IMG/VR virus record: IMGVR_UViG_3300031472_000015
Location: 16,574-80,573 of that record
Direction: 5' to 3' (one strand)
Length of the DNA stretch: 64,000 nt
From: a virus
Shown in pieces: positions 1,360 to 23,607 of this stretch; position 1 is the stretch's first letter; every line of letters begins with the position of its first letter. Below the pieces are notes generated by a model. The model was not told the DNA's origin. It was given only the letters and a program-made list of their open reading frames with translations, and made no database searches. Position numbers and translations under genes: made by a program.

Positions 1360-2319
1360 ATGCAGTCCAGCAACCTCCCGGCGCGGGTTCCACTCGCCTT
1401 CGCGACCGATGGACCCAAGAACATTATCCCGCTTGCCTCGCAGATCGCAATCAAACCGGCTATCGCCTCCCTAACTGATGGCTTTCCGCCTATCACTATG
1501 CTGCCTGACAACGCTGGCGGTTTGGCGCCGTTCGGCGAGGACTTCAACGGTATCCTCTTTTTGTTGTCCGCGCAGATTGTTTGGGCGTGCGCGGGCGGTC
1601 CAATGACGTTTGATGTTGGGTTCGCAGAAGCGGTTGGCGGCTATCCCAAGGGCGCGAACCTCGCATCCAACACCGCTCCTGGCCGGCGCTGGACATCAGT
1701 CATTGAGAACAATGCCAACGACCCAGACGCGGGCGGCGCCGGATGGATTGTCGGAGCGCAGCCGCCAACAGCGCGCGAGGTGTACAGCCAGCCCGGTACG
1801 GTGGAATGGGTTTGTCCCCCTGGTGTGTATCAGCTTGAGCCGCGTTTGGTTGGCCCTGGCGGCGCAGGCAGCAATGGCGCGCCCCCGAATCCTGGCCATG
1901 GCGGCGGCGGCGGCGGTTACTGCTCCGGCCCGGTGTATGTAGTTCCGGGCAACATCTATCCTCTCTCAGTTGGCTTGTTCGGCGGCGTGGGCGTTCCCGG
2001 TAGTCCGACCAGCGCGTTCGGTCTGATCGCAAACGACGGCGGCAATGGCAGTGCGGGTGGCCCTGGCGCTGGCGGCACGGCCACAGGTGGCCTTATCAAT
2101 CGCCAAGGCGGCGGCGGTGGCTACGGCTACATGGGGGGTACGACGGCCTTCGGCGGTGGCGGCGGCGCTTCGCCTACGTTGTATGGACCAAACCCCAGCG
2201 TCAACAGCCCTGGCCCAGCCACGCCAGGCCAGCCCGGTAGCACCGGACAGGGCGGCACGGGCGGCCCGAACGGCTCAGGCGGCAATGGCGGTGGTGGAGA
2301 AATCGTACTATGCTACTGA
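1360..2319 (+). CDS. Tail fibre-like protein with Gly-rich C-terminal domain
   Basis: N-terminal ASLTDGFPPITM...PFGEDFNGILFLLS baseplate-attachment pattern, GYPKGA motif, GGGGGGY repeats; GGAG RBS before ATG 1360. Confidence 0.75.
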   Translation: MQSSNLPARVPLAFATDGPKNIIPLASQIAIKPAIASLTDGFPPITMLPDNAGGLAPFGEDFNGILFLLSAQIVWACAGGPMTFDVGFAEAVGGYPKGANLASNTAPGRRWTSVIENNANDPDAGGAGWIVGAQPPTAREVYSQPGTVEWVCPPGVYQLEPRLVGPGGAGSNGAPPNPGHGGGGGGYCSGPVYVVPGNIYPLSVGLFGGVGVPGSPTSAFGLIANDGGNGSAGGPGAGGTATGGLINRQGGGGGYGYMGGTTAFGGGGGASPTLYGPNPSVNSPGPATPGQPGSTGQGGTGGPNGSGGNGGGGEIVLCY

Positions 2320-3698
2320 CCCGCGCCACGCTAATGGCCAGCGTGCTGCTCTTGCCTATGGCAAGCCGTGCTGCGGAGCCGACCAGCGCACCGATCAGCG
2401 GCCTGCCGACCGCAACGTCAACAACCGGCGGGGAACTGCTTCCCTGCGTTCAGGGCGGCGTGACGCGCCGCTGCACCGTGCAGCAGATCGTCAAGGCCCC
2501 AATGGACAGCGTTGCCGCCGAGGCTGCTCGCGCGCTTGCAGCGGAGGCCGCCAAAGCCAGTCAAGCCAATTTCTCCACGTCCACCACGGGCGATGTGGTG
2601 CTGAGTTCAGGCACCGCCGGAGCGCAGGTCAGAACCACGCTCGGTATCTCAGCCATCGGCTCCATAACAGCGGGGTTCGACGGCAGGGTGCCTGGCGCGA
2701 ATTGGCTTAGGACCTATGCCTATGGCGATCATGCCAGCTTCGTCGGCTTATCTCCTTACGGAGATGTCGGCCTCACTGGCGCAAGCAGGAACACTGACAA
2801 CGGGGGCGCGCAGTCGGCGTCGATTGGGACCGTAGGGTTCAACTTCAACTACAACACGGTGACACCGGCCGGCGGTTGGGGCGGGTATTTTGAAACCCGC
2901 CATGCCCAGGGTGCCGGCGTTTCGCAGGGCATTGAGATCGACGCGACCGAGTTTGGCACCGCTATCAACCCGACCGCTTATTACGGTGCGTTCAGCACCG
3001 CAGCTTTGTGGCTTGCTTCAGGCGGTGGCTGCATTGCTAGTGCACCATGCTGGAACGGGACATCGCAGGGCGGCGTGGCCTCGGATGCCAGCGTGGCAAT
3101 CGGCATCACCAACAATGGTGCTAGGTTTTTGAAAGGCATTGTCGTCCGCAATGGCTCCGTCACCGGCTGTGACGGTACGAGCCCTAATCAGACTTGCACT
3201 GTCTTGGAAGCAGGGCGTGGTTCACAGATCGTATTTGATGACCCTCTGGGCAGTCCGCGCTCCGTCATCAGTGCTGATGCCGGAACAGGTGCTCCTGTGT
3301 CGAAAATCAAGTTTACCGATCAAGGCGTGGCTATTCAGAATGCGTTTAATGTGAACACACTTCGTGTTGTGCCTGACAGCAGCGACGTGAACGGGATTGT
3401 TATTGCTGGTGCCACGTCGGGAAACAGCCCTACCATCATTCCCTCGCAAGAGAACACCGGGCTGCTGCTGACCGGGAACGGCGGAAGCACGCTCATCCGA
3501 CTCTTGCCGTTCGTGAAGTTTGGCGAGGGGCTGCTGGTCGCCTCCCTTCCATCCTGCGATGCCGCCCATGCGGGCTGGGTTACGTTCGTCACGGACGCCG
3601 CTTCCCCCGCCTATAACGCGGCGGTCACGGGCGGCGGCATAGGCCCGTCTGCTTCGGTCAATGTGCTTTGCAACGGAGCCGCCTGGACGGCGCATTGA
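2310..3698 (+). CDS. Tail fibre/tailspike-like protein (462 aa) with signal-peptide-like N-terminus
   Basis: ISGLPTA...GGELLPCVQGGVTRRCTVQQI and AAEAARALAAEAA fibre motifs; beta-rich body; start overlaps previous stop. Confidence 0.55.
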   Translation: MLLTRATLMASVLLLPMASRAAEPTSAPISGLPTATSTTGGELLPCVQGGVTRRCTVQQIVKAPMDSVAAEAARALAAEAAKASQANFSTSTTGDVVLSSGTAGAQVRTTLGISAIGSITAGFDGRVPGANWLRTYAYGDHASFVGLSPYGDVGLTGASRNTDNGGAQSASIGTVGFNFNYNTVTPAGGWGGYFETRHAQGAGVSQGIEIDATEFGTAINPTAYYGAFSTAALWLASGGGCIASAPCWNGTSQGGVASDASVAIGITNNGARFLKGIVVRNGSVTGCDGTSPNQTCTVLEAGRGSQIVFDDPLGSPRSVISADAGTGAPVSKIKFTDQGVAIQNAFNVNTLRVVPDSSDVNGIVIAGATSGNSPTIIPSQENTGLLLTGNGGSTLIRLLPFVKFGEGLLVASLPSCDAAHAGWVTFVTDAASPAYNAAVTGGGIGPSASVNVLCNGAAWTAH

Positions 3699-3778
3699 GA
3701 AGCACGCCGATCTTCGCCGCTTGCTGACGCATCCCTGACTGCTGGTCTTACCGCATCTCTCGCAAGGAACCCCCTGCC

Positions 3779-5008
3779 ATGACCTATGTCCTCCCGAAGC
3801 CGCCGTCCGCCGTCGTCATCCGGCCTGACAATGGGCAACAGTTGCCGGCAACGGGAGCCGACATTCCGCCGGCCTACATCAACTGGGTCCTGACGGAGCT
3901 AAAGGCGCAGGCGATCCAGCTTGGCAGCGCGCCGGTCGGCAGCGTGACCGTGCCGACGCCTACTCCGACGCCTACGCCCGTTCCTACGCCCGTTCCAACG
4001 CCTGTGCCGACGCCGACCCCCACACCCAGCCCGACGCCCACCGGCACCTATGACACTGATGCACAGGTTCATGCCGTCGTTGCGGCGGCCCTGGCCGCGT
4101 TCCCTGGCGGTGAGCTGCCCGCGCAGGTTCACACCGACATCGCCGCAGCCCTGGCGGCGCTTCCACCCTCCGCCACCTCGGCGCAGATGGCCGCCGCTAT
4201 CGCGACTGCCGTGCAGCCTCTTGCGACGCAGGCGCAAGTCACGGCATTCATCAGCGCCGCTGTAGCCGCCTTGCCGCCCGGCGAGACCCAGGCGCAGGCA
4301 CATACAGACATCGCGACGGCGATTGCGGCCCTGCCGGCTGGCGCGACCCTGGCGCAGATGACGGCGGCCATCGCAACCGCAGTGGCCCCGCTCCAAACTG
4401 CGGTGCAGGTCACGGCCTTGATCAACGCGGCTTTGGCGGCCCTGCCAAGCAGCAGCGCGCCCGGCACCACGCTCAGCCAGGTCAACACGGCGATCAGCAC
4501 CGCGCTCGCCGCCCTGCCGCCCAGCGAGTCCGCAGCCAAGGTTCAGACCGATATCGCGGCGGCCATCGCAGCCCTGCCGGCCAGTTCCACCCCGGCGCAG
4601 GTGAGCGCGGCCATTGCGGCGGCCATTGCGGCATTGCCGGCGACGGACAGCCACGCGGCCATTGCGGCGGAAATCGCGGTGGCGATCCAGGCGATCCCCG
4701 CCCCGGTGCCGGACCCGATCCACAAATACGTGGCGGCCGGCGCCATCGCCTCAAACGTCCGCAACGCTTGGCTGTATGCAGCAGGGGCCTACACGCTCGG
4801 TGCACCGACGCAGGACGGCCAGCGCATGACCATCAAGCGCCGGGTGGCGGGTTCGGTCAGCGTCACCCTGTCGCTTGAGGATCAGGCAAGCTACGCCTTT
4901 ACGATGGGCGATCCTGCCGCGCCGTCGCCACCGACGTTCCCGCGCGACTGCCTAACCCTGACCGGCGAGACCACCACCGCAGCGGCGCCCACTTGGTCGC
5001 TGATCTAA
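3779..5008 (+). CDS. Pro/Thr-linker, Ala-rich repeat protein (stalk-like), tail region
   Basis: PTPTPTPVPTPVPTP linker followed by about 11 repeats of ~20 aa (AQVxxxIAAAxAALPxxxT). Confidence 0.6.
   Translation: MTYVLPKPPSAVVIRPDNGQQLPATGADIPPAYINWVLTELKAQAIQLGSAPVGSVTVPTPTPTPTPVPTPVPTPVPTPTPTPSPTPTGTYDTDAQVHAVVAAALAAFPGGELPAQVHTDIAAALAALPPSATSAQMAAAIATAVQPLATQAQVTAFISAAVAALPPGETQAQAHTDIATAIAALPAGATLAQMTAAIATAVAPLQTAVQVTALINAALAALPSSSAPGTTLSQVNTAISTALAALPPSESAAKVQTDIAAAIAALPASSTPAQVSAAIAAAIAALPATDSHAAIAAEIAVAIQAIPAPVPDPIHKYVAAGAIASNVRNAWLYAAGAYTLGAPTQDGQRMTIKRRVAGSVSVTLSLEDQASYAFTMGDPAAPSPPTFPRDCLTLTGETTTAAAPTWSLI
4060..4700 (+). repeat. About 11 imperfect ~60-bp coding repeats (AQVHTDIAAALAALP-type)
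   Basis: Read directly from the translation of 3779..5008. Confidence 0.8.
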
Positions 5009-5018
5009 GACCTCAGTC

Positions 5019-6266
5019 ATGTCCTACTTGCCCACGCCCGCTGCAGCCGACCAGGTTATTGCGCCGAGCATCGCGATAACCGACACGCTGCGGGGGCTGC
5101 ATGGGCGGGCGGAGGTGCAGTACACTCCGCAGGCCATCGCCGACCTGATCCGCGATCTCAATGCGGTGAAGCCACTGCAAATCGCGCAGACCTACGGTGC
5201 CCAGCCCGATGCTGACCAGGGCGCCTTCCTGAACAAGTTCGTTGTCCACGAGAACATCCAGTTTGCTGGCAAGATCGACGTGCTCACGCTGGAACACCAC
5301 TACGGGGGCGGTGCTGGCGGGCGCAACACTTCGGAAGTGTTTAGCTTCTTCGACAGCGCGTCCTTGCCCTCAAACACCGACCGCAACTATGTGGGCTTTG
5401 CCAGCAGCTTCTTCGCAAGCGCGGCGGATAGCCCCGATGCCAACGGCAACGGCGGCGGGGGCTTTGCCGTAAACTTCGTCGCAACGGTCGGACCCGGCGT
5501 CAAGTGGTACAATATCACCGGGGGCGAGATAAACTTTGGGATTGAAACAGGCGGTTCCGCCATACTTAAAAGCGGGCTTTCCATTGCGCCTAATCCCACC
5601 GACACGGTGCAGGCAACGCTCTATGATTGCGGCCTGTCGATCAGCAGCCAGAATGCGACGTTGGGCCTGCGGCACGGTATCCTGTTCAGCAACTACAACG
5701 GATACTTCCCGTGCCGGGCCGATGGCACCCTGATCGGGGTCGCAGGCCCTGGCGCTGCAACCCGCAACGGCATCGACTTCACAGGCTGCAAGTTCTCCGG
5801 CGCCGCCTTCGCATCGGCTAACTTCCAGGTGGATGGCAGCGGCGAGATGCTGGCGAACTCGCTCTCCATCTTCGGCAACCTGGGACCTCCCGGGCAAGCT
5901 CTCCTCGTCCCGGCGTCGCATGCCAACCGCGGGGGCCTTGTCGGCTGGAATGCGTCCAACCTCTCAGGCGAGGTCTCCTACATAAACACCTACCCCGGGG
6001 CGCAGAACGCGCACGAGTGGTACCAGCAGATCGCGGACGGATCGCTGCGTGCCCTGGGCGCGGTCGATAGCACAGGGGCTTGGCAGTTCCCCGTGAGCGT
6101 GTTCACGCCACGGCTGGAGTTCACCCCGGGCGGCGCGGTCCAGGCGTTCTACGACCCTGCTCCAGGCAAGATACTTTTTCAGATCGGGGGCGTGGTTGTC
6201 ATGTCCGTCGATGCCGGTGGCAATATCCGCTCCAAGGGAACCCTCACGGGAAGCGTCGTCCCGTGA
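5019..6266 (+). CDS. Tailspike/fibre-like beta-rich protein (415 aa)
   Basis: Long ORF with G/N/S/T/F-rich beta-type composition in the tail operon. Confidence 0.5.
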   Translation: MSYLPTPAAADQVIAPSIAITDTLRGLHGRAEVQYTPQAIADLIRDLNAVKPLQIAQTYGAQPDADQGAFLNKFVVHENIQFAGKIDVLTLEHHYGGGAGGRNTSEVFSFFDSASLPSNTDRNYVGFASSFFASAADSPDANGNGGGGFAVNFVATVGPGVKWYNITGGEINFGIETGGSAILKSGLSIAPNPTDTVQATLYDCGLSISSQNATLGLRHGILFSNYNGYFPCRADGTLIGVAGPGAATRNGIDFTGCKFSGAAFASANFQVDGSGEMLANSLSIFGNLGPPGQALLVPASHANRGGLVGWNASNLSGEVSYINTYPGAQNAHEWYQQIADGSLRALGAVDSTGAWQFPVSVFTPRLEFTPGGAVQAFYDPAPGKILFQIGGVVVMSVDAGGNIRSKGTLTGSVVP

Positions 6267-6451
6267 TGTTCACGCAAGCCCAAGCCGCAAACCTACTGGC
6301 GTTTCTACGCCCCGAAATCGAGAAGGCGCAGGCGCTCGGCGAACTACTGAACATCATCGGGCCGATTGCCAATCCGCCGCCATCGCCGCCCGGATCGCCT
6401 ACGCCGTCTCTGCCCGAACCGCCTGCCGAGGCGCCTTTCAACCCGTCCTGA
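6266..6451 (+). CDS. Small helical protein with Pro-rich tail (possible fibre chaperone)
   Basis: TGATG coupling to upstream gene; MFTQAQAANLLAFLRPEIEKAQALGELL. Confidence 0.5.
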   Translation: MFTQAQAANLLAFLRPEIEKAQALGELLNIIGPIANPPPSPPGSPTPSLPEPPAEAPFNPS

Positions 6452-6469
6452 CACGAGGGGCTATCATCC

Positions 6470-9400
6470 ATGTCCATCATCAATCCGCAGCCCGCGCAGG
6501 GCACGCTAGGCACGAGCACGTCGTTCGTGGTGTCCGATTCTACTGGACAGCAGACAGCCACGCCAACGCAGGTTGGCGTGCTCCTGGGCATTACTGTGGC
6601 ACCAGCGGCCACCACTCCCACGCCCACCCCGACGACGCCCGGTCCGACCCCGACGCCGACCACGCCGACCACGCCGACCACGGCATTCTCGCTGGTGACG
6701 GCTGGCAACCCCATGCCGGACCTGCTGCTGGCCCTCGACCCGGCGCTGCCGGCTTCCACCGCATCGCTGGTGACCGGCACGCCCGGCATCCAGGTCGATA
6801 CGAACAAGAACGTCCTTGCTCTGATCGAGCCGGTGAACGGCTACCCGTGCGGCCATGGGTATGGCGAGACCATGCTGGTGGCGAGCGGCCCCGGCGGGTT
6901 CCCAGTGTTCCACTCGACCCCAGCCGGATACAATCAGACCTACGACGCCATCGTCTTGCCGTATGAAGTCGGGACCAAGCTGTTCGGCGCCCCGAACGCA
7001 GGCGCCTATGTCGCCTTCGTGCTCAAGCAGACCGCGGCTGGCGCGAACGCGCTGCTGCAGGTGTGGGGGGCGAACGGCAACGTCAACGTCATCGGCGCGT
7101 CCGGGGCCTCCGACGGCGCGCTGCGGGTCGAGCAGAACAACGGCGGCGCGGTGGGCTCGGAGCCGACCTCGTCCGCGACCGCGCTGAACCAACTGCAGAT
7201 CCTTGAGCTGATTTTCGACCCGAACAAAAAGACCATTGCGGTCTGGCGCAACGGCAGCCTCACCTTGGAGACCCCGCCCGGCTACATCGGCAACATCGGC
7301 GCGCTCAGCCGCTTCGAGGTGCTGAATGACGGCCGCGCCGACGTGAGTTGCGCGCTGTTCGGCAGCACCATCCCCACAGTGGCCCAGCAGAACGCGGTCC
7401 GCGCCTTCCTGGCGGCGCGCTATGCCATCACCGTGACGACGAGCACCCCCGCCGTCGTCAACCCGCCTGCCACCACGCCTGGCGCGCTGGCCGACTACCC
7501 GCAAATCTATCGCCAGCCGTCCGGCCCAATATTCAAAGATACGACCCAGGTGCCGTTTGGGGTGACATTGGTCAACCCGGCCAGCAACGTCCAGTGGCTG
7601 AAAATGGGACGCTTGGTTTCAGACGCGAACATCAAGAGCCAAGCCGACCTTTTCTCACAAGTCTATACGCGGAACGCCAACGCCATAGACTCTCCCAGCT
7701 ATTATCCCAACCAGGGAGAAAACGGGTTCGACGCGGTTTATCGGGATTATCCGGAAGGCGACCCTCGGAACCTGCACGTCATCAAGGATGACTGCATGGC
7801 GCTGATCCTCCGCACCCTGGTGGTCGGTCAGACCAGCAGCTACCGTTTCGAGATGGGCTTCATGCGGCTGCTGGAGCACCTGACGAAGGGACGCTACGCC
7901 GAGATGACCTGGACTTGGCCAGGTGGCGACTTTGACACCATCGTCGGGCAGTTGATTTCCTGGCTGACGTTCTGGGGCTTTTCGAACTATCAGGAGCCGT
8001 TGACAAAGAACGTGTATATCGGGCAACCGAGCCTTGAAGGCGACTGGCCCGACAACTTCAAAGAGGATCATGCCCAGCTTGGCGACAGCTATAATACCGG
8101 GTATGTCCTATATGGTAATTACCTGAAGGATGCGCAGGGCAACTACTATCCCGATCCCTCTGTTTATGGAAATCCGAGAAACCTATACCTGAGCAACACG
8201 CCGCCCTTCGTCGGTGGGCGGAACGGGCGGGTCTATGTCACCGATCCCGCCATGAAGCCGCACACCGGCAAGCATCGCATGGGGATCGACTGGCGGCTGG
8301 ATGACACCTGGGTTTTCGTCATTGACGGCGTGCCGGTCCGCAAGCTGCACATCGCGTATCCAGCCGTCTTCGGATCAGGCGGCAGCTACGTGGGCCAGGG
8401 CAATCCCCCGCCGGCCGCCATGAACGGTAAGCCGGTGCCGTTGAACATTGAGATCGGGCACCAGAGCCAGGCGCGGTTCAACCCTGACACCTACGCCAAG
8501 ATGATCGCCAACAACGACACGACAAACCCGCTGCGGGCGGAGCTTCGCATCTACTCCATCGGCGTCTGGGACAGCAACACGACGGTCGAGCCGCCGACCA
8601 GCACGCCCATCCCGGCGCTCCCAGCGCCGCAGACCGGCGCCGCGCTAGGCGACCTGCCGGCGATCACGTCGGGCACCTACCTGCTCAACATCGACGCCGG
8701 CAAGCCGAACCCAGTCAGCGACCAACTCGGGCTGAACACCGTGTTTGCGGTCAACAACCTCTACGTGCCGACCGACCAGATCAACGGGCTGGGCACGATC
8801 CACCTGGACGGCGACGACAACAACCCCGCCGGCCTCGCCGTCCGCGGCCCGGCCGTGGGCCAGGCGCAGGGGGCAGGGCAGGTCGTCCTTTTCGTGGTGC
8901 TCAAGGACGCCAATCCCTATGCGGACAGCCATCCGCAGGTGCTGGCGCAGTTCTCCAGGATCACCCCTCAGACCGACCAGAACACGAACCGCATCACGCT
9001 GAGCATGTCGTCCTTCGGCGCCGGCGCATCGTGCCAGGCGTTCGGCACCCACGGCGGCAACTACGGGGCCTGCATCGCCGGCAGCGACGGGCACTATGCC
9101 ACGGCGTCGGCGGGAGGCTGCAATTTCGGACAGACCGAGATCATCACCCTGACCAAGTCCCTGGCGGGCGACGGCACGGTGGTGGTTGGATCGGGCTACG
9201 GCGGGCAGCAGAACCTGCCGGCGTCCGGCGGCGGGGTGCCGCCTGCCAACATCAGCGGGCTGACCGAGCTGACCATCGGGTGCGCCCGCGACTACGACGG
9301 GTTTGCCACCTGGGGCGCGCTTGGACTGCTGGGACAGGTGATCGAGGTGGGCGTCGCGGCCGGCGGCAGCTTGTCCGCTACCGATTACACGGCCATCGTC

Positions 9401-9481
9401 GCCTACCTGCAAGCCAAGCGCGGGGCGGCCAACCCAGGCGCGTCCACCAGCGCGAACGCCGCGGCATCCTCGGGTTTCTAG
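6470..9481 (+). CDS. 1003-aa multidomain protein: PT linker, LamG-like, divergent GH16-like and second LamG-like domains
   Basis: GRYAEMTWTWPGG...WLTFWGF...LEGDWPD...HRMGIDW...FVIDG follows the GH16 beta-jelly-roll pattern; (PT)n linker near the N-terminus. Confidence 0.65.
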   Translation: MSIINPQPAQGTLGTSTSFVVSDSTGQQTATPTQVGVLLGITVAPAATTPTPTPTTPGPTPTPTTPTTPTTAFSLVTAGNPMPDLLLALDPALPASTASLVTGTPGIQVDTNKNVLALIEPVNGYPCGHGYGETMLVASGPGGFPVFHSTPAGYNQTYDAIVLPYEVGTKLFGAPNAGAYVAFVLKQTAAGANALLQVWGANGNVNVIGASGASDGALRVEQNNGGAVGSEPTSSATALNQLQILELIFDPNKKTIAVWRNGSLTLETPPGYIGNIGALSRFEVLNDGRADVSCALFGSTIPTVAQQNAVRAFLAARYAITVTTSTPAVVNPPATTPGALADYPQIYRQPSGPIFKDTTQVPFGVTLVNPASNVQWLKMGRLVSDANIKSQADLFSQVYTRNANAIDSPSYYPNQGENGFDAVYRDYPEGDPRNLHVIKDDCMALILRTLVVGQTSSYRFEMGFMRLLEHLTKGRYAEMTWTWPGGDFDTIVGQLISWLTFWGFSNYQEPLTKNVYIGQPSLEGDWPDNFKEDHAQLGDSYNTGYVLYGNYLKDAQGNYYPDPSVYGNPRNLYLSNTPPFVGGRNGRVYVTDPAMKPHTGKHRMGIDWRLDDTWVFVIDGVPVRKLHIAYPAVFGSGGSYVGQGNPPPAAMNGKPVPLNIEIGHQSQARFNPDTYAKMIANNDTTNPLRAELRIYSIGVWDSNTTVEPPTSTPIPALPAPQTGAALGDLPAITSGTYLLNIDAGKPNPVSDQLGLNTVFAVNNLYVPTDQINGLGTIHLDGDDNNPAGLAVRGPAVGQAQGAGQVVLFVVLKDANPYADSHPQVLAQFSRITPQTDQNTNRITLSMSSFGAGASCQAFGTHGGNYGACIAGSDGHYATASAGGCNFGQTEIITLTKSLAGDGTVVVGSGYGGQQNLPASGGGVPPANISGLTELTIGCARDYDGFATWGALGLLGQVIEVGVAAGGSLSATDYTAIVAYLQAKRGAANPGASTSANAAASSGF

Positions 9482-9534
9482 CCGGGAGCACGGGGGCGCC
9501 GGCCCCCGCTGCTCCCACCCCGCCCGCCCCCGGC
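9472..9534 (+). promoter_or_regulatory. Putative programmed -1 ribosomal frameshift signal
   Basis: In-phase X XXY YYZ heptamer G GGT TTC (9472-9478) just before TAG; 5-nt spacer; 14-bp hairpin 9484-9516; loop could pair with CCGGC at 9530-9534. Confidence 0.75.
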
Positions 9535-11932: not shown

Positions 11933-11957
11933 GTCGCGTGTGCCCCTGTATGCGCGT

Positions 11958-12085: not shown

Positions 12086-12107
12086 AGATCGCTCAAGGAA
12101 CGTCCAT

Positions 12108-15100: not shown

Positions 15101-15716
15101 GGATACTGGCGCTCTCTACATTCTCGATCGTGGTCATAATGCCATATCTACTGATCAGGTTATCATCAGCAATAACTACGTTGAAAATCCTGGCGGAGGT
15201 GCCGCAACGAAAGGAATATACCTGGATGATCATTCTTCTTACGTAACGGTATCTAATAACATTGTTCGTGGCGTTATGAAAAACTCTATGCAACTTCATG
15301 GCGGCGACCACGTGACATTCAGCGGAAATATATTCGACATCTCGGGCACAGCGGAACAGCCTTTCTACGCACAAGAGGCAGTTTTGTCAGCAGGTCCAAC
15401 AAACTTTGGCATGGGGAGCGATGCATTTACGGGCAACATCATCTACTGCGCCACTTCTTGGCACGGCGGCGACCTTTGGCTCTTTGAGACTGACGGGCAA
15501 GTCATCGCCCTGCCTGCTGTGAGCAACAACCTGTATTTCTGCACAGCAGGGCCTTTGCCCAATACCGGTGCCGTGGTGGATGCCTCGCCCAAGTCCGTTA
15601 ATCCAAATTTCACCAATGCCAGTATTGGAGACTACAGCTTTACCGATGGCGGGGCTGCTGTCGCCGCCGCCATTGGATTCAGTCCCATAAACCAAAACGC
15701 TCTAGGACCGCAATAG
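12108..15716 (+). CDS. 1202-aa protein with two tandem right-handed parallel beta-helix (pectin-lyase-like) modules
   Basis: FVSPTGSDSNPGT..P and FIAPTGSDANPGT..P module starts, GIYxDD motifs, both modules end VNPNFxN...DYSFTDGGAA; PT linker at the N-terminus. Confidence 0.75.
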   Translation: MSFTPLLTAAAIDVKVAALRAELVAAGVLSATSAPVVPASPLAPTPTPTPVVLPAITASPIAPTSVIGFTLGTGNAAIALLSAVPSGATRSLSPNDGRVVLDSSGTHLIVGMTAATAGTISYTITDTLSGSASVSLVVPVVVSAAQLAQATAPTGPAPAITIPGAGQLPNQRVGLLQPALFVSPTGSDSNPGTQSAPLKTAAAAQTAMRAQGVKTVYFRDGVYPLTATLQISESDSGTNWLGFPGEKPIFDGGGTTVGGFLLQYYTTGAKVDHLTFRNFSTNGIWIHGGNGAGAVGNTISNNEVYNISIPNIAGGAGNSGGILLTYNTQGNVVTHNFVHDTQTAGISMAAGSTGESIKGNAITFNKVWRTNSSGQLDSGGVYALDRTAAQSGCIIAYNDVRDTSKNASGGGPGNGCDNTKGIYADDMASGFTIAYNIISGNEAMAIQYHGGTNNKVYGNILDVSQTMLGILYQDDTEFGGTTMSGNTFTGNIVYTSTAYNGNVGQAGQPGLWTVGFVSTLIKPSVSGNIYWNTTNTTTPFPNSGAVDVIDLSPHVVNPNFANPALYDYSFTDGGAAMAAFGFAPIDQTIIGPNVQSIGAAQASLSGIPSASTVGADISGSVVLTYIQTAYAALYVGGADEGACVAFQGGTLPKLQAQTSSPQYEYHVYDAMVGGNLLAKFGPISVGGPVATATLSNVTTTVSVGGTVSGTVALRYTSTAYAVLASGGADIGSRVAVSNGAQLALTAPSIAVDTVRVWDAATGGTLLVESGAINVHAVGAVPSPAFFIAPTGSDANPGTQAAPFLTFEAALAAMQGSTTKLTLARGGLYPRTASIKFNDSSNTAIGGPGPKTHDNGVTFMRFPGEVPVVDGGGSVTDLWFLDYHTQRVTIQGFEIRNCLNSGVHLNGYRTATDEGTILGCVVQDNYIHDIANGVSNVGAGNTGGVRGSFATRNNIVRNNRIENTFGPAVSFVAGGTNETIAGNQMLNNICRNNNQSGQPDTGALYILDRGHNAISTDQVIISNNYVENPGGGAATKGIYLDDHSSYVTVSNNIVRGVMKNSMQLHGGDHVTFSGNIFDISGTAEQPFYAQEAVLSAGPTNFGMGSDAFTGNIIYCATSWHGGDLWLFETDGQVIALPAVSNNLYFCTAGPLPNTGAVVDASPKSVNPNFTNASIGDYSFTDGGAAVAAAIGFSPINQNALGPQ

Positions 15717-16599
15717 TATTCAACCGCGCGCGCTCGGCTCTTTCGCGTGCGCCGCGCTTCCTCTGTGCCTCGCTCATCTTTGCTTTCGTTTCAAGACTAG
15801 CCTTGGTTCCTGCTCGTGACCTACCAACCGCAATGATAGCGGCTCGGTGTTCAGCAGAGTTTGGGTTTGTCTGCCATCTCAGCAAAGCGGAAGCGCTCAT
15901 CTGAGCGCGCGTCTCTGGCGTGTTCTTTCGACCGGTATTCTTAAGAGCGGTTTCCGCGACATGACGCGGGTCTAGGAACCCAGCGGGAATCTTGCCGGTC
16001 ATGTTGGCGCGTTGCTTCTCAATATGCTCTGGACTGAGTTTCCGGCCCTTTAACCCAGCGCTGATGGCAGCGCGCCATTCCGGCGTTATTATCCTGCCGC
16101 GGTTCGCCACGCTAAGCTTAAGACGCGCTTCTGCACTCATCACCCGCCCCTTAGACCGCAGACCTACCCTAGCGCGAGCTTCTGGAGTGGACTGGACAAC
16201 CTTCTGAACAGCCCGCATCTTAGCGAGTGTCTCAGCCGAGTGCTTATGGCCGCGATTGCTGGCGGCTACGGTGCGGGTGTTGTAGCCAAACTTGGGATCA
16301 GTTGCCTGCGTCCTATCAAGCCAAACCTGTTCATGGGCTAAGAGGTCGTCAATGCCCTCAACGATTTCTAGCACTTCAAACGCGAAGGCATCTTCACCGT
16401 GCTTGGAGAATGCATGTTGCAGGTAGCGGGCGATGTGTGTCCCTTGCCGTAGGTGATGGATATGAATGTTCCAGCGCAGGTTAATACTTTGGGCGCTGCC
16501 AACGTAAAGTTGGCCGCTCGCTAGGTGCCGGATTCCATAGATGCCAGCGCACTTGGGCTTGACCTTGGTGCGCGTTCCGTCCAACTGAATTACAACCAT
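15679..16599 (-). CDS. GIY-YIG homing endonuclease with NUMOD3 repeats
   Basis: GIYGIRHLASGQLYVGSA..R..H, LAHEQVWLD, GYN; repeated HSAETLAKM / TPETRAQMS / SLETKAKMS. Confidence 0.85.
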   Translation of the reverse strand: MVVIQLDGTRTKVKPKCAGIYGIRHLASGQLYVGSAQSINLRWNIHIHHLRQGTHIARYLQHAFSKHGEDAFAFEVLEIVEGIDDLLAHEQVWLDRTQATDPKFGYNTRTVAASNRGHKHSAETLAKMRAVQKVVQSTPEARARVGLRSKGRVMSAEARLKLSVANRGRIITPEWRAAISAGLKGRKLSPEHIEKQRANMTGKIPAGFLDPRHVAETALKNTGRKNTPETRAQMSASALLRWQTNPNSAEHRAAIIAVGRSRAGTKASLETKAKMSEAQRKRGARERAERARLNTIAVLERFGLWD

Positions 16600-16626
16600 C
16601 TGATGCAACTCGCTCTTGCTAGGGTG

Positions 16627-16697
16627 GCCAGGGGCGCGAGGGCTGTTTCAGCAACCCTCGCGTTCCCGCATTTTAGCAGACCCTCCAAAACCTGCAA
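16627..16697 (-). promoter_or_regulatory. Promoter and 5'-UTR hairpin of the GIY-YIG gene
   Basis: Minus strand TTGCAG-N16-TAAAAT with TG extension, then CGCGAGGG...CCCTCGCG stem. Confidence 0.5.
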
Positions 16698-16729
16698 GAA
16701 CTCACGTAGATCACCAAAGGACGGCCCAC

Positions 16730-19700
16730 ATGAGCCACCTGCCCGGCTTCTTCACCTCGCCTGCCCAGATGCAGAGCGCCATCACCACAGCCGTCTCCGG
16801 CGTGCCGCTGGGCGAGCTGCCGACACAGGTGCACCAGGACATCGCCGCCGCGGTCCTGGCGCTTCCGGCAGGCTCTACGCCCGCGCAGGTGCAGACCGCG
16901 ATCACCACGGCGCTCGCTGGGCAGCCGGTGGGGGAGTTGCCCGCGCAGGTTCATGCGGACATCGCGGCGGCGGTTGCGGCTCTGCCGGTTGGCGCGACCC
17001 CGGCGCAGGTGACGGCGGCGATCACCAGCGCGACGGCTGGGCTGGCGACGGTGGCGCAGGTGGCGGCACAGTTCAGCGGCGCACCGCTGGCAGCGCTGGC
17101 GGACACGACGCAGCTCGCAGTGTCGTCCGGCAGCGCCATCGTCGGCACGATCCCAGTCAGCGCGTTCCGATCCTACCTCATGGCAACCTCTGCTCCAGTG
17201 CCGTTGCCTATACTGGCGCTGGTCATGCCAACCGCCGTCCAGTCAGGTACCGGCTACATGATCAACGGCACCTACGCCAACGACGGCACCTCGCCGATCC
17301 TGAGCGTCATCGTGGATGGCGGCAGTCCCCAAACCCTTCCGGCCGGCAGCACCGTCAGCGGCGGCAGCATCGTGCTGGCGATGGGCGGCATGAGCAACGG
17401 CACGCACCGCGTGCAGGTGCAGGACGGCAACGGCAACCTGAGCAACGTGGTTCAGTTCGCGGTTACGCCGGCTGAAACGCTGACCCTGGACCCGATCACG
17501 ACGCCGCCCGCGCCGGGCGCGGCGTTCTCGCTGACAGGTGGGTATGCCAACGGCACGCCAGGCGGGCTGGACTACGCCATCACGCTCACGGGCGACACCG
17601 TCACCTGGACCTCCGCCGTGTCGCCGACGCTTGCCAGCGGGCGCTACAGCATCGCGGTGCCGGCGCTCCCGGCTGCGGGCAGATACACCGTGCAGGTGCG
17701 TGACCACTCGGCGCAAAGCATCGTGGCTAGCACGGCGCTGACAGTAGCCGCGGCGGCTGGAACCATGCCGACCGTGCCGCTGCCGGTCAATGCGGCAGCC
17801 GGCGCACCGGCGCCCGCGAACCTGCCGCCGCTGCTGGCTTTCACCGGACCTGCAGGTCCGCCGACCGGCGCGCTGGCGCTGACCCATCTCGGCGGCGCTG
17901 CAATCGACACCATGGTTCAAAACGGTTCTGGCGCGCTGGTTCTGCCGGGCGTGGCGTATGCCTATGCGGCGCTTGAGGGCCTCGGCGCGCTTGCAAACGG
18001 GGCGTTTGAGATCGTTGCGGCCAATGGCCCCCAAGCGCTGAACTTCGGGGTGTTTGTCCGGGTGCCTCCCGACTTCTCCAAGTCCCCCGTGCTGCTCTTC
18101 AAGGGCGGCAACGGCGTGCAGTTGTATGGGTTTGACCCATCCAATCCATCGTTCAGCGCGCCAGCCACATTCAGCGACCTGCTTGTCTCAGTAACAGGGC
18201 AGACGGTGGTCGTGACCGTGGATGGCGCTCAAGTGCTGTCTTTCACCGGCACCCAGCTTCCGGCCTCCGGCTTTGTCGGCCTTGGATCGTCTACCACGCC
18301 GATGCCGCAGGCGCAGGTCGCCTCCGTGCGCGTGTTGACGGCAGCGCAAATCGCAGCGGCACTAGCGCAGTCCGCTGCGACCGCCGCTGCCGCTGCCACC
18401 GCGGAAGCCTTGATCGGCAACCCGGTCACGAACCCCAATGCGGACGGCTTTGCTCCCGGCATCTACGGACCGGACACCGTAGTTGTCGCCGCCGGCAGCT
18501 ACGGCACCCGCACCTATGGCAACTGGTTCGCGCGACTGCCGACCGGCGGCGCGCAGCAATGGTCGTTGAGCGGTCCTGCCGCCTCGACCGGCATGTATCT
18601 GGGCGGCACGAGCGGCACCAGCTTGACGGAATACGGCATCGGAGCGGCAAACGGCACCTATCCTGGGGTGCTGACAGTCACCGATGGGCAGAGCACGTTC
18701 ACCAAGAACATTTCGGTCGTCGTCCAGGCCACCGCCGTCATCCCAGGCGGATGCTTTATCTTGGACAGCGCGGCGGTCAACCCCTATGGCAACGGCAGCG
18801 GCGATCTTGCGGCGCAGCTCATCCTTGAGCCGCCCATTGATCAGTTTGCAGGGGGCGCCGCCACCTTCACCGATCCGAACGGGATGCTAGGCTGGGATCG
18901 ACAGGGTTTGAACCAGCTTTGGGTCACGTCTGCCGGACGCCCCCTCTCGGCGCACTACGGCAAGCACACGGGAGCGACGTTCACCTCGCCGGCAGGGACG
19001 CAGGCATTTACCTACTACTTCGCGCAAGAGCAGCCTGCCGGGCTGACGTTCCAGCCGGTGCCCGCTTACACCTATGCCCAGCCTGGCAATGTGTTCGGCC
19101 GCCTGCTGGCCTCATCGGATGCGGGTATCGCGAGCTACAGCGTCATCTCGACAGACACGCCGCTGTCCATCGGCAGCGACGGAACCATGCGCTATCTGGT
19201 CCAGCCCGCGGCAGGAGCCGGCAACGCGGTGCATGTGCGCGTCACCAGCCAGAGCGGCCACACGACGGACATCACCGTCAGCAACCCCGTCCAGGCCAGC
19301 ACGACGCTGCCGGCCAGCAGCATGACGCTGACCTTGTCGGCCGCGCTGGACAACAGCATGGGCACCCTCGTGGCACCCGGCCCGGTGCCGGTCGGCACGG
19401 CGTCCGTCAGCGGCATGGGCAACCCCGTGTGGCGCGTGCAGGCGGTCGGCGAGTTCCCGCTCAACACGGGCAGCGGCATCCAGGGCACGTTCAACATCGC
19501 GCCGCGCGCCGGCAACCCAGCCCTGGCCGACATCACGGCCAACTTCTTGTCGGGCCAGACCTATCAGGTCCAGGTGACGGCGACCCAGGGGGCCACGCAA
19601 TGCCAGGCGACGACGGCGCTGACGGTCGCCGACCTGAACGGCACGGGTCCGGTCATCCAGATCGTGCCCGGCAGCGCCGTCACGGCGACGCAGGCCCCGA

Positions 19701-21211
19701 CCTGGAACCAGGCCATGGACATCTACCGGCAGGCTCCAGCTGCGAACAAGGGCTGCACGATGCAGCTTCCCGGCGGCCCCTTTGCCATCGTCAACGACCC
19801 CTCGGGCACGGCGGACTTCAACCGCCACGGCATCGGGCACGGCAACAACGAACAGTATCCGCCCGGTCCCTACACCCTGCGCGGGCCTGCCGATGTCAGC
19901 AACCCTGCGATCCTGACCTTGAACGGTGCGCCAGGCTTGTCGGCGCAGGGCGGCCTGATCGCGCAGGGCGGCGACGTGCAGTTCATCAACCTCATGGTCA
20001 AGAACGTCAGCAACCTCAATGCCGGGGAAGGCAACGCTGGCGCGTTCTACAAGACGGGTGGCTGCCCCCACAACCTACTGATCCAGGACAGCAAGGCATA
20101 CAACAGCGACAACGGGTTCCTATCCGGCTACAACGAGGCCAGCACCATCACGATGCGGCGGTGCGTGTTCGCCTTCAACGGCATCGGCGCGGGCGGCCTC
20201 ACCCACAACTTCTATGTGGGCCATGCCGGGCACGCCATCGCCGACCAGGTGCTGTCGTTCTCGACGGCGCAGGTGCATGAGGGCAAGTGGCGCAGCCGCA
20301 TCACCACGATCACGAACAGCACCTTTGCCGACGGGCAGAACGGCGTGCCGGGCAGCAGCTCGTGCCTAGACTTCCCGCTGGGTGGGCTGGTGAACGTCAC
20401 CAACACCGTGCTGCACAAAGGCCCCTGCCCGAACGGCGACACGGACATGGTGCAGTATGGCGAGGAGGCGCCGGGGCAGAACGGCCCCGCCTGGGACGTG
20501 AACGTGCTGACCCTGGACGGCGTGACGTTCCTGAACACGGCGGCACCAGGCTCCACCAGCTCAAGCACGATCGCGGTCAACTTCATGCAGGGCGGCGCCG
20601 TGCCGTGCGTGTCCCCGACGACCGGCACTCCTGCGACCATCGTCGTCAAGAACAGCCGGTTCTACAACCTGCCGCGGGATCAGTGGTTCCTGGAAAGCGC
20701 GCCAGGTAACACCATCACCGATGGCGGCGGCAACGTGTTCCTGACCGATTGGCCCGGCCTGCAAGCCATTGATCCCAGCACGGGCGTGCTGCTAACGCAG
20801 GCGCACAAACCGGGGCCAGGGTTCGACGCGGGCTACATCGGCGTCAAAGGCGATCATGGCATCGTGCTGGATGCGCTGGAGCTGGAGACGCGCATCCCGG
20901 CCGGCGCCTCAGTCGGCAGCTGGGTGACGCAGTTCTTCGTTTACGACCAAGCCGGCAAGCCGCTGGGCAGCCCCGTGTGGTCCCTGCCGACCGACCAGGT
21001 GAACACCGGGGCGTTCAGCCTCACCGCGTCCGGCCAGCTCAACGTGGCGCAGGCAGGGCTTGTGGACGGCCTGCGCTGGGCCAAGGCGCAGGTGACGGGC
21101 ACGGACAGCTTCGGTGCGGCACAGAGCTACACGAAATACATCTACGTGATTGTGGGCACCGGGCACGTTCCGGGCCTGGCGACGCAGGGTGGGGCGGTTC
21201 TGGCCGCCTAG
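16730..21211 (+). CDS. 1493-aa protein: Ala-rich stalk repeats, Ig/cadherin-like domains, C-terminal beta-helix domain
   Basis: AAGGA RBS; GELPxQVHxDIAAA repeats; Ig-like G.HxVxVxD segments; NGFLSG/THNFYVG/EGKWRSR beta-helix pattern. Confidence 0.7.
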   Translation: MSHLPGFFTSPAQMQSAITTAVSGVPLGELPTQVHQDIAAAVLALPAGSTPAQVQTAITTALAGQPVGELPAQVHADIAAAVAALPVGATPAQVTAAITSATAGLATVAQVAAQFSGAPLAALADTTQLAVSSGSAIVGTIPVSAFRSYLMATSAPVPLPILALVMPTAVQSGTGYMINGTYANDGTSPILSVIVDGGSPQTLPAGSTVSGGSIVLAMGGMSNGTHRVQVQDGNGNLSNVVQFAVTPAETLTLDPITTPPAPGAAFSLTGGYANGTPGGLDYAITLTGDTVTWTSAVSPTLASGRYSIAVPALPAAGRYTVQVRDHSAQSIVASTALTVAAAAGTMPTVPLPVNAAAGAPAPANLPPLLAFTGPAGPPTGALALTHLGGAAIDTMVQNGSGALVLPGVAYAYAALEGLGALANGAFEIVAANGPQALNFGVFVRVPPDFSKSPVLLFKGGNGVQLYGFDPSNPSFSAPATFSDLLVSVTGQTVVVTVDGAQVLSFTGTQLPASGFVGLGSSTTPMPQAQVASVRVLTAAQIAAALAQSAATAAAAATAEALIGNPVTNPNADGFAPGIYGPDTVVVAAGSYGTRTYGNWFARLPTGGAQQWSLSGPAASTGMYLGGTSGTSLTEYGIGAANGTYPGVLTVTDGQSTFTKNISVVVQATAVIPGGCFILDSAAVNPYGNGSGDLAAQLILEPPIDQFAGGAATFTDPNGMLGWDRQGLNQLWVTSAGRPLSAHYGKHTGATFTSPAGTQAFTYYFAQEQPAGLTFQPVPAYTYAQPGNVFGRLLASSDAGIASYSVISTDTPLSIGSDGTMRYLVQPAAGAGNAVHVRVTSQSGHTTDITVSNPVQASTTLPASSMTLTLSAALDNSMGTLVAPGPVPVGTASVSGMGNPVWRVQAVGEFPLNTGSGIQGTFNIAPRAGNPALADITANFLSGQTYQVQVTATQGATQCQATTALTVADLNGTGPVIQIVPGSAVTATQAPTWNQAMDIYRQAPAANKGCTMQLPGGPFAIVNDPSGTADFNRHGIGHGNNEQYPPGPYTLRGPADVSNPAILTLNGAPGLSAQGGLIAQGGDVQFINLMVKNVSNLNAGEGNAGAFYKTGGCPHNLLIQDSKAYNSDNGFLSGYNEASTITMRRCVFAFNGIGAGGLTHNFYVGHAGHAIADQVLSFSTAQVHEGKWRSRITTITNSTFADGQNGVPGSSSCLDFPLGGLVNVTNTVLHKGPCPNGDTDMVQYGEEAPGQNGPAWDVNVLTLDGVTFLNTAAPGSTSSSTIAVNFMQGGAVPCVSPTTGTPATIVVKNSRFYNLPRDQWFLESAPGNTITDGGGNVFLTDWPGLQAIDPSTGVLLTQAHKPGPGFDAGYIGVKGDHGIVLDALELETRIPAGASVGSWVTQFFVYDQAGKPLGSPVWSLPTDQVNTGAFSLTASGQLNVAQAGLVDGLRWAKAQVTGTDSFGAAQSYTKYIYVIVGTGHVPGLATQGGAVLAA

Positions 21212-23575: not shown

Positions 23576-23607
23576 GGGTGTTTTCCTAACTTTGATATGA
23601 GGCTGGC

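Follow-up and report, generated by a model that had tools for sequence, protein, structure and literature searches.

Why does a contractile-tailed phage carry a 19-kb array of modular genes where its relatives carry one fibre gene? The window analysed here is a 64,000-nucleotide stretch of the virus record IMGVR_UViG_3300031472_000015, and the array fills positions 2310-21211 of it, ~19 kb (all coordinates are those of the window, and features lie on the + strand unless marked −). We propose that the array is a greatly expanded receptor-binding (tail-fibre) locus, a reading that we consider likely, and that its accessory proteins would cleave glycans. The source element is a complete 106.8-kb virus record (a ~107-kb contractile-tailed phage) with a myovirus gene set that includes major head, sheath, tape measure, hub and wedge proteins; type IV secretion system and plasmid-type conjugation genes are encoded on the same record. 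The portal lies at one end of the record and the major capsid at the other. Because host flanks are absent, the label "prophage" used in an earlier note on this DNA is inaccurate; the record is a complete virus and not a chromosomally integrated one.

What occupies the same position in related phages? The gene order here is baseplate J, DUF2612 wedge, primary fibre, array and reverse-strand acyltransferase. The left border of the fibre slot is the baseplate wedge protein (DUF2612/Phage_Wedge1; 626..1312; Pfam PF11041, E 6.7e-56), which is 98.7% identical in the sister contig L023 and 47% identical to the product of the gene that immediately precedes the tail fibre gene of Burkholderia phage PE067. 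The primary, baseplate-anchored tail fibre of 331 aa follows (1324..2319; phrog_12796 tail fibre, E 2.5e-35, aa 13-146), and its residues 13-141 share 49% identity with the N-terminal part of the PE067 tail fibre, a protein of 678 aa. We propose that this fibre is the probable docking platform for the other array proteins. The right border is an Acyltransferase_3 gene of the O-antigen acetylase type (21208..22167, −; Pfam PF01757, E 1.2e-26; phrog_3333 O-acetyltransferase), with which the PE067 acetyltransferase agrees in position and orientation. The O-acetyltransferase gene and a PEP-CTERM gene come after the array. In PE067 and other relatives the DUF2612 wedge gene and the reverse-strand acyltransferase gene enclose a single fibre gene, and in 11 viral contigs encoding a 46-51% identical wedge protein the downstream ORFs measure just 250-810 aa (up to 10 kb of flank). 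Synteny with PE067 and L023, a check suggested by the earlier note, thus places the array in the single-fibre slot of a myovirus.

The array itself comprises six large ORFs of 462, 409, 415, 1003, 1202 and 1493 aa, whose lengths agree with those first listed for them, plus an ORF in the −1 frame. Since each array gene has homologues, these are real genes and not chance ORFs of GC-rich DNA. We correct the first reading by adding that the array is interrupted by two reverse-strand homing-endonuclease genes: an HNH-like gene (11156..11932, −; phrog_16521 and phrog_59, HNH endonuclease; GC 0.49), which has an HNH-like counterpart at the same place in L023 (72% nucleotide identity), and a GIY-YIG/NUMOD3 gene (15679..16608, −; Pfam PF01541 and PF07460; phrog_314, E 1.1e-30; GC 0.56).

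Do the array proteins have the folds of glycan-binding and glycan-cleaving proteins? The 1003-aa protein (6470..9481) contains an N-terminal peptide, a PT linker (nt 6596-6682, aa 43-71), a LamG-like domain (6683-7429), a diverged GH16-fold domain (7538-8578, aa 357-703) and a CBM-like beta-sandwich (8666-9406). Its AF2 model has a pLDDT of 81.9 overall and above 90 for residues 72-320. Homologues number 44 among 1.84 billion representatives, and many homologues are secreted bacterial proteins that start with signal peptides. The LamG-like domain has the LG-type sandwich fold, with Foldseek matches to neurexin LNS and laminin LG domains (E 4e-11 to 1e-8), and the homologue P0016 matches Pfam Laminin_G_2. 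Similarly, the C-terminal sandwich matches domain 4 of AbnA (VIA Z 19.2). The central domain (model residues 357-703) gives VIA Z scores of 18-19.6 to more than 40 GH16 structures, including 19.6 to the laminarinase 8xpk (rmsd 3.0 Å over 230 residues), a Foldseek E of ~1e-7, and an hhalign probability of 91.6% (E 8.3e-7) against the alignment of the canonical GH16 domain described below. The 1003-aa protein itself has no Pfam GH16 match; its homologue P0010 exceeds the Pfam GH16 cut-off (24.5 vs 22). The motif of the central domain is E523-G-D525-W-P-D528 (8036-8053), that is, ExDxxD and not the canonical ExDxxE. It is at best GH16-like in its working, and we therefore do not file the domain as a canonical GH16 member. 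Residues E523, D525 and D528, together with a W..FW strand, do not vary within the close family and recur in nearly all of ~30 members including secreted bacterial ones, a conservation that argues for a selected active site.

A canonical GH16 domain lies in the −1-frame extension (9478..11178), which consists of a Pro/Ala linker, the GH16 domain, an Ig-like domain and a C-terminal sandwich. The Pfam match (PF00722, nt 9838-10272) reaches 63.2 bits, the cut-off being 22 (E 2.7e-17), and PDB laminarinases are matched with E values down to 2e-13. Within the ORF at 9541-11178, a WPAFW strand (aa 146-150) is followed by the motif EIDINE (aa 161-166; 10021-10038), which aligns with EIDILE of ULam111 (5wut). 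The nearest named relatives are the Sinorhizobium-type endo-1,3-1,4-beta-glycanases EglC and ExoK, and the domain falls far under their cut-offs (NCBIfam EglC, E 3e-33, 115 bits vs an equivalog cut-off of 700).

Is this second GH16 domain part of the 1003-aa gene product? The earlier note had left the product as "1003 or ~1570 aa", and the sequence of this junction is best explained by a −1 frameshift, whose read-through form would be 1569 aa as compared with the 1003-aa short form. The candidate signal (9472..9516) combines a heptamer, the stop codon, a spacer and a hairpin. The heptamer G GGT TTC (9472-9478) matches the pattern X XXY YYZ at every position and runs directly up to the stop codon TAG (9479-9481); downstream of the heptamer are a 5-nt spacer, UAGCC, and a 14-bp hairpin (9484-9516; MFE −45.2 kcal/mol, z −2.15), the hairpin z-scores (−2.15 and −2.06) being modest. 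Conservation of the two-frame arrangement was judged on two comparators, L023 and L002. In L023 the same −1 relation occurs at a different sequence, with a UUUU run, a 5-nt spacer and a 12-bp hairpin, and its −1 frame stays open through the stop as linker-like sequence; in the distant phage L002 both parts form a single in-frame ORF, P0008, to whose residues 1301-1839 the −1-frame part is 52% identical. There is a minor chance that the split is not programmed and reflects a one-base assembly error, the record being a metagenome assembly, or a decaying fusion gene, the two parts being simply fused in P0008, or separate translation of the GH16 domain from the ATG present at 9541. However, the independently assembled L023 repeats the −1 relation along with the U-run, spacer, hairpin and open frame, the heptamer here has exactly the expected form and position, and the ATG at 9541 lacks a Shine-Dalgarno sequence, unlike the other array genes, which have AAGGA or GGAG. 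Returning to the programmed frameshift, the 1003-aa gene, at a presumed frameshift efficiency, probably yields both the 1003-aa form and a 1569-aa form with a second GH16 domain.

The remaining candidate cleaving modules are beta-helices. The 1202-aa protein (12108..15716; GC 0.607) carries a docking tag, a PT linker (aa 43-52), an Ig-like domain (12264-12551), a first beta-helix (12615-13907), two small sandwiches (13908-14444) and a second beta-helix (14445-15713). Pfam Beta_helix (PF13229, E 1.5e-14) matches in two stretches, and the two halves of the protein, with their beta-helices in tandem, are 36% identical to each other (E 2e-74). Giant proteins of L002 and L003 have N-termini 43-48% identical to its N-terminal residues 16-148. 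Where a homotrimeric tailspike has its particle-binding domain, the 1202-aa protein shows only the short tag that it shares with other giant proteins. The 1493-aa protein (16730..21211, from the ATG) has Ala-rich stalk repeats (16730-17104), Ig-like domains, four cadherin-like domains (18413-19627; Foldseek E 3e-10 to cadherin ectodomains), a predicted beta-helix (about 19820-20782, low-confidence model) and a C-terminal sandwich. The best 50 VIA matches of its model (pLDDT 53.7) are all beta-helix enzymes or tailspikes (Z 13.9-16.7), two of six family members match Pfam Beta_helix (1.3e-4), and Atlas features agree with a beta-helix (scores 0.92-0.94); an hhalign comparison of this helix with those of the 1202-aa protein was negative. 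The modules read from the sequence in the earlier note are thus largely recovered. Both GH16 and beta-helix folds appear in the models, and the two GH16-like domains are now resolved into one canonical domain (Pfam) and one diverged ExDxxD fold (AF2, VIA and hhalign). The LamG-like and the Ig/cadherin-like modules are likewise found; of the three beta-helices, the two in the 1202-aa protein are upheld by Pfam, while the third depends on the pLDDT 53.7 model.

The 409- and 415-aa proteins resemble stalks or fibres. In the 409-aa protein (3779..5008) an N-terminal docking tag and a PT linker (aa 58-88) lead into a run of Ala-rich repeats, about eleven in number and each of ~20 aa (aa 88-307, nt 4040-4699), and the C-terminal domain is small. 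The (Pro-Thr)n linkers noticed at first reading are therefore present in the 409-, 1003- and 1202-aa proteins. L003 has three giant proteins whose tags, like that of the 1202-aa protein, align with the 409-aa tag, and the Ala-rich repeats recur at the N-terminal end of the 1493-aa sequence (44% over 129 aa, E 2e-20). The 415-aa protein (5019..6266) has homologues at 72% and 52% identity, none of which carries a Pfam domain, and no match in the PDB search; Atlas leads with scores of at most 0.85 point to the trimeric fibre folds Hyaluronidase_1, Mtd_N and Gp34_trimer. A T4 gp10-like branching domain has no Pfam match in any array protein, and for the 415-aa protein an Atlas lead only (0.84) points to a cluster with T4_gp9_10_N in 33% of members.

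How did the array arise? In the sister contig L023 the baseplate is 93-99% identical and the array gene order is kept, with bodies swapped. For example, the slot of the 462-aa gene carries a different, beta-helix-like body, and the homologue of the 1003-aa protein has two extra modules. The 1493-aa protein shares 82% identity with the beginning of the last gene of L023, and the 1202-aa gene and the GIY-YIG gene are missing there, the indel corresponding to window 12016-16709. In L002, an unrelated siphovirus-like contig, homologues of the 1003-aa, GH16 and 1493-aa proteins lie directly after a gpJ-type tail-tip gene. Likewise, the N-terminal tag MTYFTKPPN...ALxxLRxELVxAGILS heads paralogous giant proteins both here and in L003. 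By sequence comparison, the N-terminal modules stay conserved and different bodies are exchanged behind them, which is the pattern of receptor-binding proteins. The locus would have evolved by such whole-body exchange on kept N-terminal modules together with gain and loss of cassettes, one of them beside a homing endonuclease.

Are the array products virion proteins at all? The 462-aa mosaic protein (2310..3698) bears most directly on this question. The first 10 nt of its gene are shared with the fibre gene, the Shine-Dalgarno sequence GGAG precedes the start, and searches of Pfam, PHROG, NCBIfam and the PDB returned no match for the protein. It begins with a signal-peptide-like stretch (aa 1-24), MLLTRATLMASVLLLPMASRA|AEP, of Sec-like n-h-c pattern. 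The N-terminal module (aa 11-92) is 79% identical to P0067 of the sister phage, whose body differs, and the body (aa 84-462) is 75% identical to P0062, a bacterial protein that is encoded among non-phage genes and starts with a clear signal peptide. Many homologues of the 462-aa protein come from bacteria and are secreted. By its sequence the 462-aa protein may thus be exported, and some of the array products, or all of them, might be non-virion proteins, exported or freed at lysis by a resident element so as to remodel host exopolysaccharide or O-antigen. They would then serve in lysogenic conversion, superinfection exclusion or biofilm release, with the secreted succinoglycan glycanases ExoK and ExsH as a comparable case. 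The signal peptides on many 1003-aa homologues and the O-acetylation and PEP-CTERM genes behind the array fit this explanation, as do the plasmid-type conjugation genes, which make long-term carriage of the element plausible. We nevertheless regard it as unlikely. Signal peptides are absent from the 409-, 415-, 1003-, 1202- and 1493-aa proteins, so that the host surface enzymes offered as an alternative in the earlier note have some basis in the 462-aa protein but not in the others. Even there the sister phages diverge most in the signal-like stretch (8 changes in 48 nt) and the L023 gene starts with TTG, so that the 462-aa start could be miscalled. Furthermore, the array lies on one strand directly behind the baseplate genes in a single-fibre slot, its N-terminal modules are kept while bodies are swapped in the manner of receptor-binding proteins, and homologues stand behind gpJ in L002.

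It is less likely still that the proteins are adhesins only, a multivalent lectin apparatus in which the ExDxxD domain and some beta-helices bind without cutting: the GH16 general acid/base Glu is indeed Asp in the 1003-aa protein, which has no Pfam GH16 match of its own, fold likeness alone is no proof of function and the catalytic residues of the beta-helices could not be assigned, but the conserved ExDxxD residues and W..FW strand fit a retained active site, the second GH16 domain has the full EIDINE motif, and the nearest folds to the beta-helix of the 1493-aa model are lyases, hydrolases and depolymerising tailspikes.

We propose, then, that the expanded tail-fibre locus would work as follows. 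A short primary fibre sits on the baseplate wedge, and six or seven accessory proteins of one plan, presumably incorporated into the virion, hang on this fibre or on the baseplate, forming a branched apparatus. Each would consist of an N-terminal docking peptide, a Pro-Thr- or Ala-rich spacer, binding modules of Ig, cadherin or LamG type, and a glycan-cleaving module, the cleaving modules being the canonical GH16, the diverged ExDxxD GH16 and three right-handed beta-helices. Together these proteins would bind and cut several host surface polysaccharides, the GH16 domains acting on a beta-glucan-type exopolysaccharide and the beta-helices on other polymers, which would bring the tail to the outer membrane; the substrates named in the earlier note, beta-glucan and "acidic EPS", we treat as predictions of this kind. 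Several cleaving modules may permit several hosts or serotypes. We count against our explanation that spikes are trimeric, whereas proteins of the GH16 and LamG types usually occur as monomers.

Finally, how does the locus compare with known systems? The Klebsiella jumbo myophage phiKp24 has hyperbranched tail fibres made of 14 proteins, all beta-helical, with T4gp10-like docking domains; its fibres are primary and secondary, and for some only a short N-terminal peptide is proposed for docking (PMC9700779). As in phiKp24, many receptor-binding or depolymerase genes occur here in one phage, with a primary fibre and modular enzymatic bodies. In contrast to phiKp24, the array has GH16/LamG folds of the CAZyme type, Pro-Thr linkers and one double-beta-helix protein, no gp10-like domain is detected by Pfam, and the genome is 107 kb. 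We take phiK64-1 and RaK2 to be further comparable phages with hyperbranched fibres. In the Ackermannviridae, CBA120 bears a branched tailspike complex of TSP1-4 (PMC11414711). Like that complex and the phi92/phAPEC8 apparatus, the array has consecutive spike genes beside baseplate genes, with modules swapped on kept N-terminal parts, and the beta-helix model of the 1493-aa protein (pLDDT 53.7) aligns with TSP2 (Z 15.6). However, the array proteins share no sequence homology with the N-terminal domains of the TSPs, they differ in number, size and mix of folds, and two homing endonucleases are interspersed here.

Annotated GH16 genes are already present in the rhizobiophages phiM9 and RHph_X2_24 and in minor tail proteins of Curtobacterium phage. 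The −1-frame ORF shares its fold, WPAFW strand and ExDxxE motif with GH16 endo-beta-1,3(4)-glucanases and EglC/ExoK. Whereas the GH16 of phiM9 is a stand-alone 429-aa gene outside the fibre cluster, here it is the distal module of a ~1570-aa protein that already has the diverged ExDxxD GH16. Programmed −1 frameshifts are known from phage structural genes such as lambda G/GT and T7 10A/10B. The candidate signal resembles these in its slippery heptamer, spacer and hairpin and in the short and long forms with a common N-terminus, but it lies in a receptor-binding/enzyme gene and would add a whole enzyme domain; among titles and the opening lines of abstracts we found no published description of a −1 frameshift that adds an enzyme domain in a fibre gene.

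By analogy only, the short docking element, flexible Pro-Thr linker, carbohydrate-binding modules and glycoside hydrolase recall the cellulosome, although dockerin or cohesin homology is absent here and the scaffold would be a phage tail. We hold it a speculative prospect, and rather a doubtful one, that possibly monomeric CAZyme-type enzymes are tethered to the small primary fibre by Pro-Thr linkers and interchangeable docking peptides, with the frameshift setting the ratio of one- to two-enzyme forms. If so, this organisation would differ from that of rigid trimeric tailspikes, in an element that is at once myovirus and conjugative plasmid. Taken as it stands beside these systems, the locus richly illustrates a known strategy, with a few unusual details, and is not a new kind of system.

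What occupies the tail-fibre region of this virus? The source record (IMG/VR, 106,826 bp, rated complete by CheckV; the window spans its bases 16574-80573) carries the major head, sheath, tape-measure, hub and baseplate-J wedge genes upstream of the array, the window itself contains a DUF2612 wedge protein gene (626-1312), and the 331-aa fibre has an N-terminus similar to tail-fibre families; by this gene content the phage is a myovirus. Its sheath protein is 53% identical to the sheaths of 44-kb Burkholderia phages such as PE067. The ORF listing contains six large genes at the sizes reported in the earlier note, encoding proteins of 462 (2310-3698), 409 (3779-5008), 415 (5019-6266), 1003 (6470-9481), 1202 (12108-15716) and 1493 aa (16730-21211, length counted from the ATG), and an additional GH16-coding open frame that runs from before 9481 to 11178. 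Two ~0.9-kb gaps in the array are occupied by reverse-strand genes absent from that account: an HNH-like gene (11156-11932, GC 0.49) and a GIY-YIG/NUMOD3 homing endonuclease gene (15679-16608, GC 0.56), compared with a GC of 0.61-0.70 in the fibre genes. A promoter and terminator scan of 2000-21500 returned nothing above chance, a megablast comparison of window positions 1-21300 with 50,697 phage records found no near-identical DNA, and tblastn with the 1202-aa protein gave no match.

In PE067 the gene order is baseplate J, a DUF2612 homologue, one 678-aa tail fibre and a reverse-strand acetyltransferase. The order is shared, the N-terminus of the PE067 fibre has 49% identity to the 331-aa fibre of the window, and a reverse-strand Acyltransferase_3 gene (21208-22167) lies 3' of the array; the 19-kb array therefore fills the slot that holds a single fibre in relatives. 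Among 11 viral contigs whose wedge protein is 46-51% identical, the downstream ORFs (flank of up to 10 kb) are only 250-810 aa long. The reverse-strand stretch 3' of the array (21208-23629) contains an O-antigen-type acyltransferase gene, as in PE067, followed by a gene whose PEP-CTERM sorting signal is weak (E 0.0014, missing the cut-off). Both look like host-surface "moron" genes, and the latter would point to an exosortase-bearing host; contig scans for host identity, using the PEP-CTERM protein and the wedge protein as queries, gave no match.

Which carbohydrate-active modules do the array proteins contain? The open frame ending at 11178 encodes a canonical GH16 domain: it scores 63.2 bits in Pfam against a cut-off of 22, matches laminarinases in the PDB with E-values down to 2e-13, and contains the motifs WPAFW and EIDINE. 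Among named relatives, the endo-1,3-1,4-beta-glycanases EglC and ExoK come closest, at scores far under their cut-offs. Family searches with the 1003-aa protein were without any match; an exhaustive HMMER search collected 44 relatives, and an AlphaFold model built on their alignment (pLDDT 81.9) has three domains. Residues 72-320 form a LamG-like domain matched by Foldseek to neurexin and laminin LG domains, residues 357-703 a GH16-fold domain (laminarinase 8xpk aligns with Z 19.6, and over 40 GH16 enzymes have Z above 18), and residues 733-979 a beta-sandwich similar to carbohydrate-binding domain 4 of AbnA (Z 19.2). In a profile-profile comparison the central domain and the canonical GH16 part align with a probability of 91.6%, E523-G-D525-W-P-D528 falling on EIDINE; the family keeps ExDxxD, not ExDxxE. 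Because fold and profile alignment match GH16 while the motif is ExDxxD, the central domain is GH16-like in fold and descent yet fails the canonical motif test; it may be a binder without cleavage. In the LamG plus ExDxxD family, many members come from bacteria and carry signal peptides (P0020, P0022, P0023, P0025, P0030-P0035, P0039 and others). Secreted bacterial enzymes and phage fibres thus share this family, for which Pfam appears to have no dedicated model. Annotated GH16 genes are known already from rhizobiophages and from tail proteins of Curtobacterium phages.

The junction between the 1003-aa gene and the canonical GH16 frame suggests how the two might be joined. The 1003-aa ORF ends in TCG GGT TTC TAG, where the heptamer G GGT TTC fits X XXY YYZ perfectly; a hairpin of 14 bp begins 5 nt further on, and the -1 frame continues as a Pro/Ala linker into GH16. 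The ATG at 9541 is without a Shine-Dalgarno sequence, and the neighbouring genes have one. In a sister-phage contig (L023) the junction sequence differs, and GH16 still occupies the -1 frame, preceded by a U-run, a 5-nt spacer and a hairpin of 12 bp; in a siphovirus-like contig (L002) the 1003-aa and GH16 parts are fused. A programmed frameshift that adds GH16 to the 1003-aa protein is therefore probable.

The 1202-aa protein contains two right-handed beta-helix modules (Pfam E 1.5e-14) that are 36% identical to each other, with two small sandwiches between them. The 1493-aa model is poor (pLDDT 53.7); its first 400 residues match cadherin ectodomains, and within this low-confidence model residues 470-790 have only beta-helix lyases, hydrolases and tailspikes as structural matches (Z 13.9-16.7). 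Pfam Beta_helix matches two of the six members of the 1493-aa family, and Atlas features are concordant. An hhalign comparison of this beta-helix region with the 1202-aa helices was negative (0.6%), and by the same method the 462- and 415-aa families are unrelated. PDB searches gave nothing useful, either with the sequences of the 1003-, 1202- and 1493-aa proteins or with profiles of the 1493-aa C-terminus and the 462- and 415-aa families. Pro-Thr linkers lie directly behind the first 40-57 residues of three proteins, a stalk repeat of ~20 aa is common to the 409- and 1493-aa proteins, and a gp10-like branching domain was not found in the array proteins. The domain findings on the 1003-aa, GH16, 1202-aa and 1493-aa proteins and the linkers therefore confirm what the earlier note had read in the sequence: Pro-Thr linkers, two GH16-like domains (one canonical by Pfam, the other, with ExDxxD, GH16-like by its modelled fold and by profile comparison), a LamG-like domain, cadherin-like modules and three beta-helices, two in the 1202-aa protein and, by the low-confidence model, one in the 1493-aa protein.

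How variable is the array among related phages? In L023 the wedge and fibre proteins are 93-99% identical to those of the window and gene order is unchanged. Its 462-aa slot encodes a protein that retains the 82-residue N-terminal module (79%) but carries a different, beta-helix-like body, the homologue of the 1003-aa protein has two additional modules of ~220 aa each, and the segment corresponding to 12016-16709, comprising the 1202-aa and GIY-YIG genes, is missing, with flanks that otherwise align. This segment has a lower GC (0.56-0.61), and the 1202-aa receptor-binding gene may have moved jointly with the endonuclease. Behind a gpJ-type gene, L002 encodes the 1877-aa fusion (P0008) and a protein of 1303 aa related to the 1493-aa protein. 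A related metagenomic phage contig (L003) also has an array (1112, 1455, 1999, 1087 and 1472 aa), and the 409- and 1202-aa proteins share an N-terminal tag with three giant proteins encoded there. Synteny, mosaicism, homologues in another tail type and this tag point to the array proteins as receptor-binding proteins. A complex prediction pairing three copies of the C-terminal half of the primary fibre with three of the 462-aa N-terminal module scored 0.30 against a mark of 0.34, a value that counts neither way. We also note that the tandem ~220-aa modules at L023:14068-15381, in a 1441-aa homologue of the 1003-aa protein, are without a Pfam match and missing from the window's protein, and that sequence matching them lies between the two GH16 parts of P0008. 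The 1999-aa protein at L003:14485-20484 has two separate beta-helix regions (Pect-lyase_RHGA_epim, NosD, Beta_helix), and tandem beta-helices within a single fibre protein are therefore a recurring feature of the group.

Could some of these proteins instead act at the host surface, the alternative raised in the earlier note? An exported role is possible for the 462-aa protein alone, because it has a Sec-type signal-peptide-like start (2310-2381; MLLTRATLMASVLLLPMASRA followed by AEP), its body shares 75% identity with a bacterial protein whose signal peptide is clear, and many of the 1003-aa protein's bacterial homologues are likewise secreted. Such a start is unusual for a gene in a tail-fibre slot. 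However, between the sister phages no part is less conserved than this signal-like stretch, which begins with TTG in L023. A chromosomal prophage, the other part of that alternative, was rejected: the major head gene opens the record, terminase and portal genes close it, and there are no host flanks. The preferred reading is that the array proteins are virion parts with predicted glycan-cutting activity.

To the right of the window, at 81841-101825 of the whole record, lies a complete-looking conjugation set: a 1430-aa TrwC relaxase with AAA_30 and Toprim_3, a TraG/VirD4 coupling protein, a VirB11-like ATPase, TrbI/VirB10, VirB8, TrbL/VirB6, TrbE/VirB4 and an SLT transglycosylase. The terminase and portal genes come after it. 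The type IV coupling protein gene (88232-91222 of the record, L026:7233-10223, minus strand) encodes a LAGLIDADG_3 domain at aa 452-513, upstream of the T4SS-DNA_transf domain, which could represent an intein or a homing endonuclease insertion. The 106.8-kb record has two readings, a hybrid of myovirus and conjugative plasmid or a chimeric assembly.

Finally, broad host range has its chief natural model in multi-spike phages, which also supply polysaccharide depolymerases; branched, multi-spike adsorption machines are well known, for example in phi92. Klebsiella phage phiKp24 carries 14 depolymerase fibres (PMC9700779), and TSP1-4 of the Ackermannviridae form a branched multi-spike adsorption apparatus (PMC11414711). 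No feature of the present locus overturns current understanding. Less usual here, and extending the known repertoire, are a CAZyme-style plan (docking peptide, PT linker, LamG/CBM, GH16) that brings GH16 and LamG modules and Pro-Thr tethers into fibre proteins, a conserved ExDxxD clade found also in secreted bacterial proteins, two beta-helices in one chain, a likely frameshift giving a receptor-binding protein an enzyme domain, and a receptor-binding cassette apparently gained or lost jointly with a homing endonuclease.
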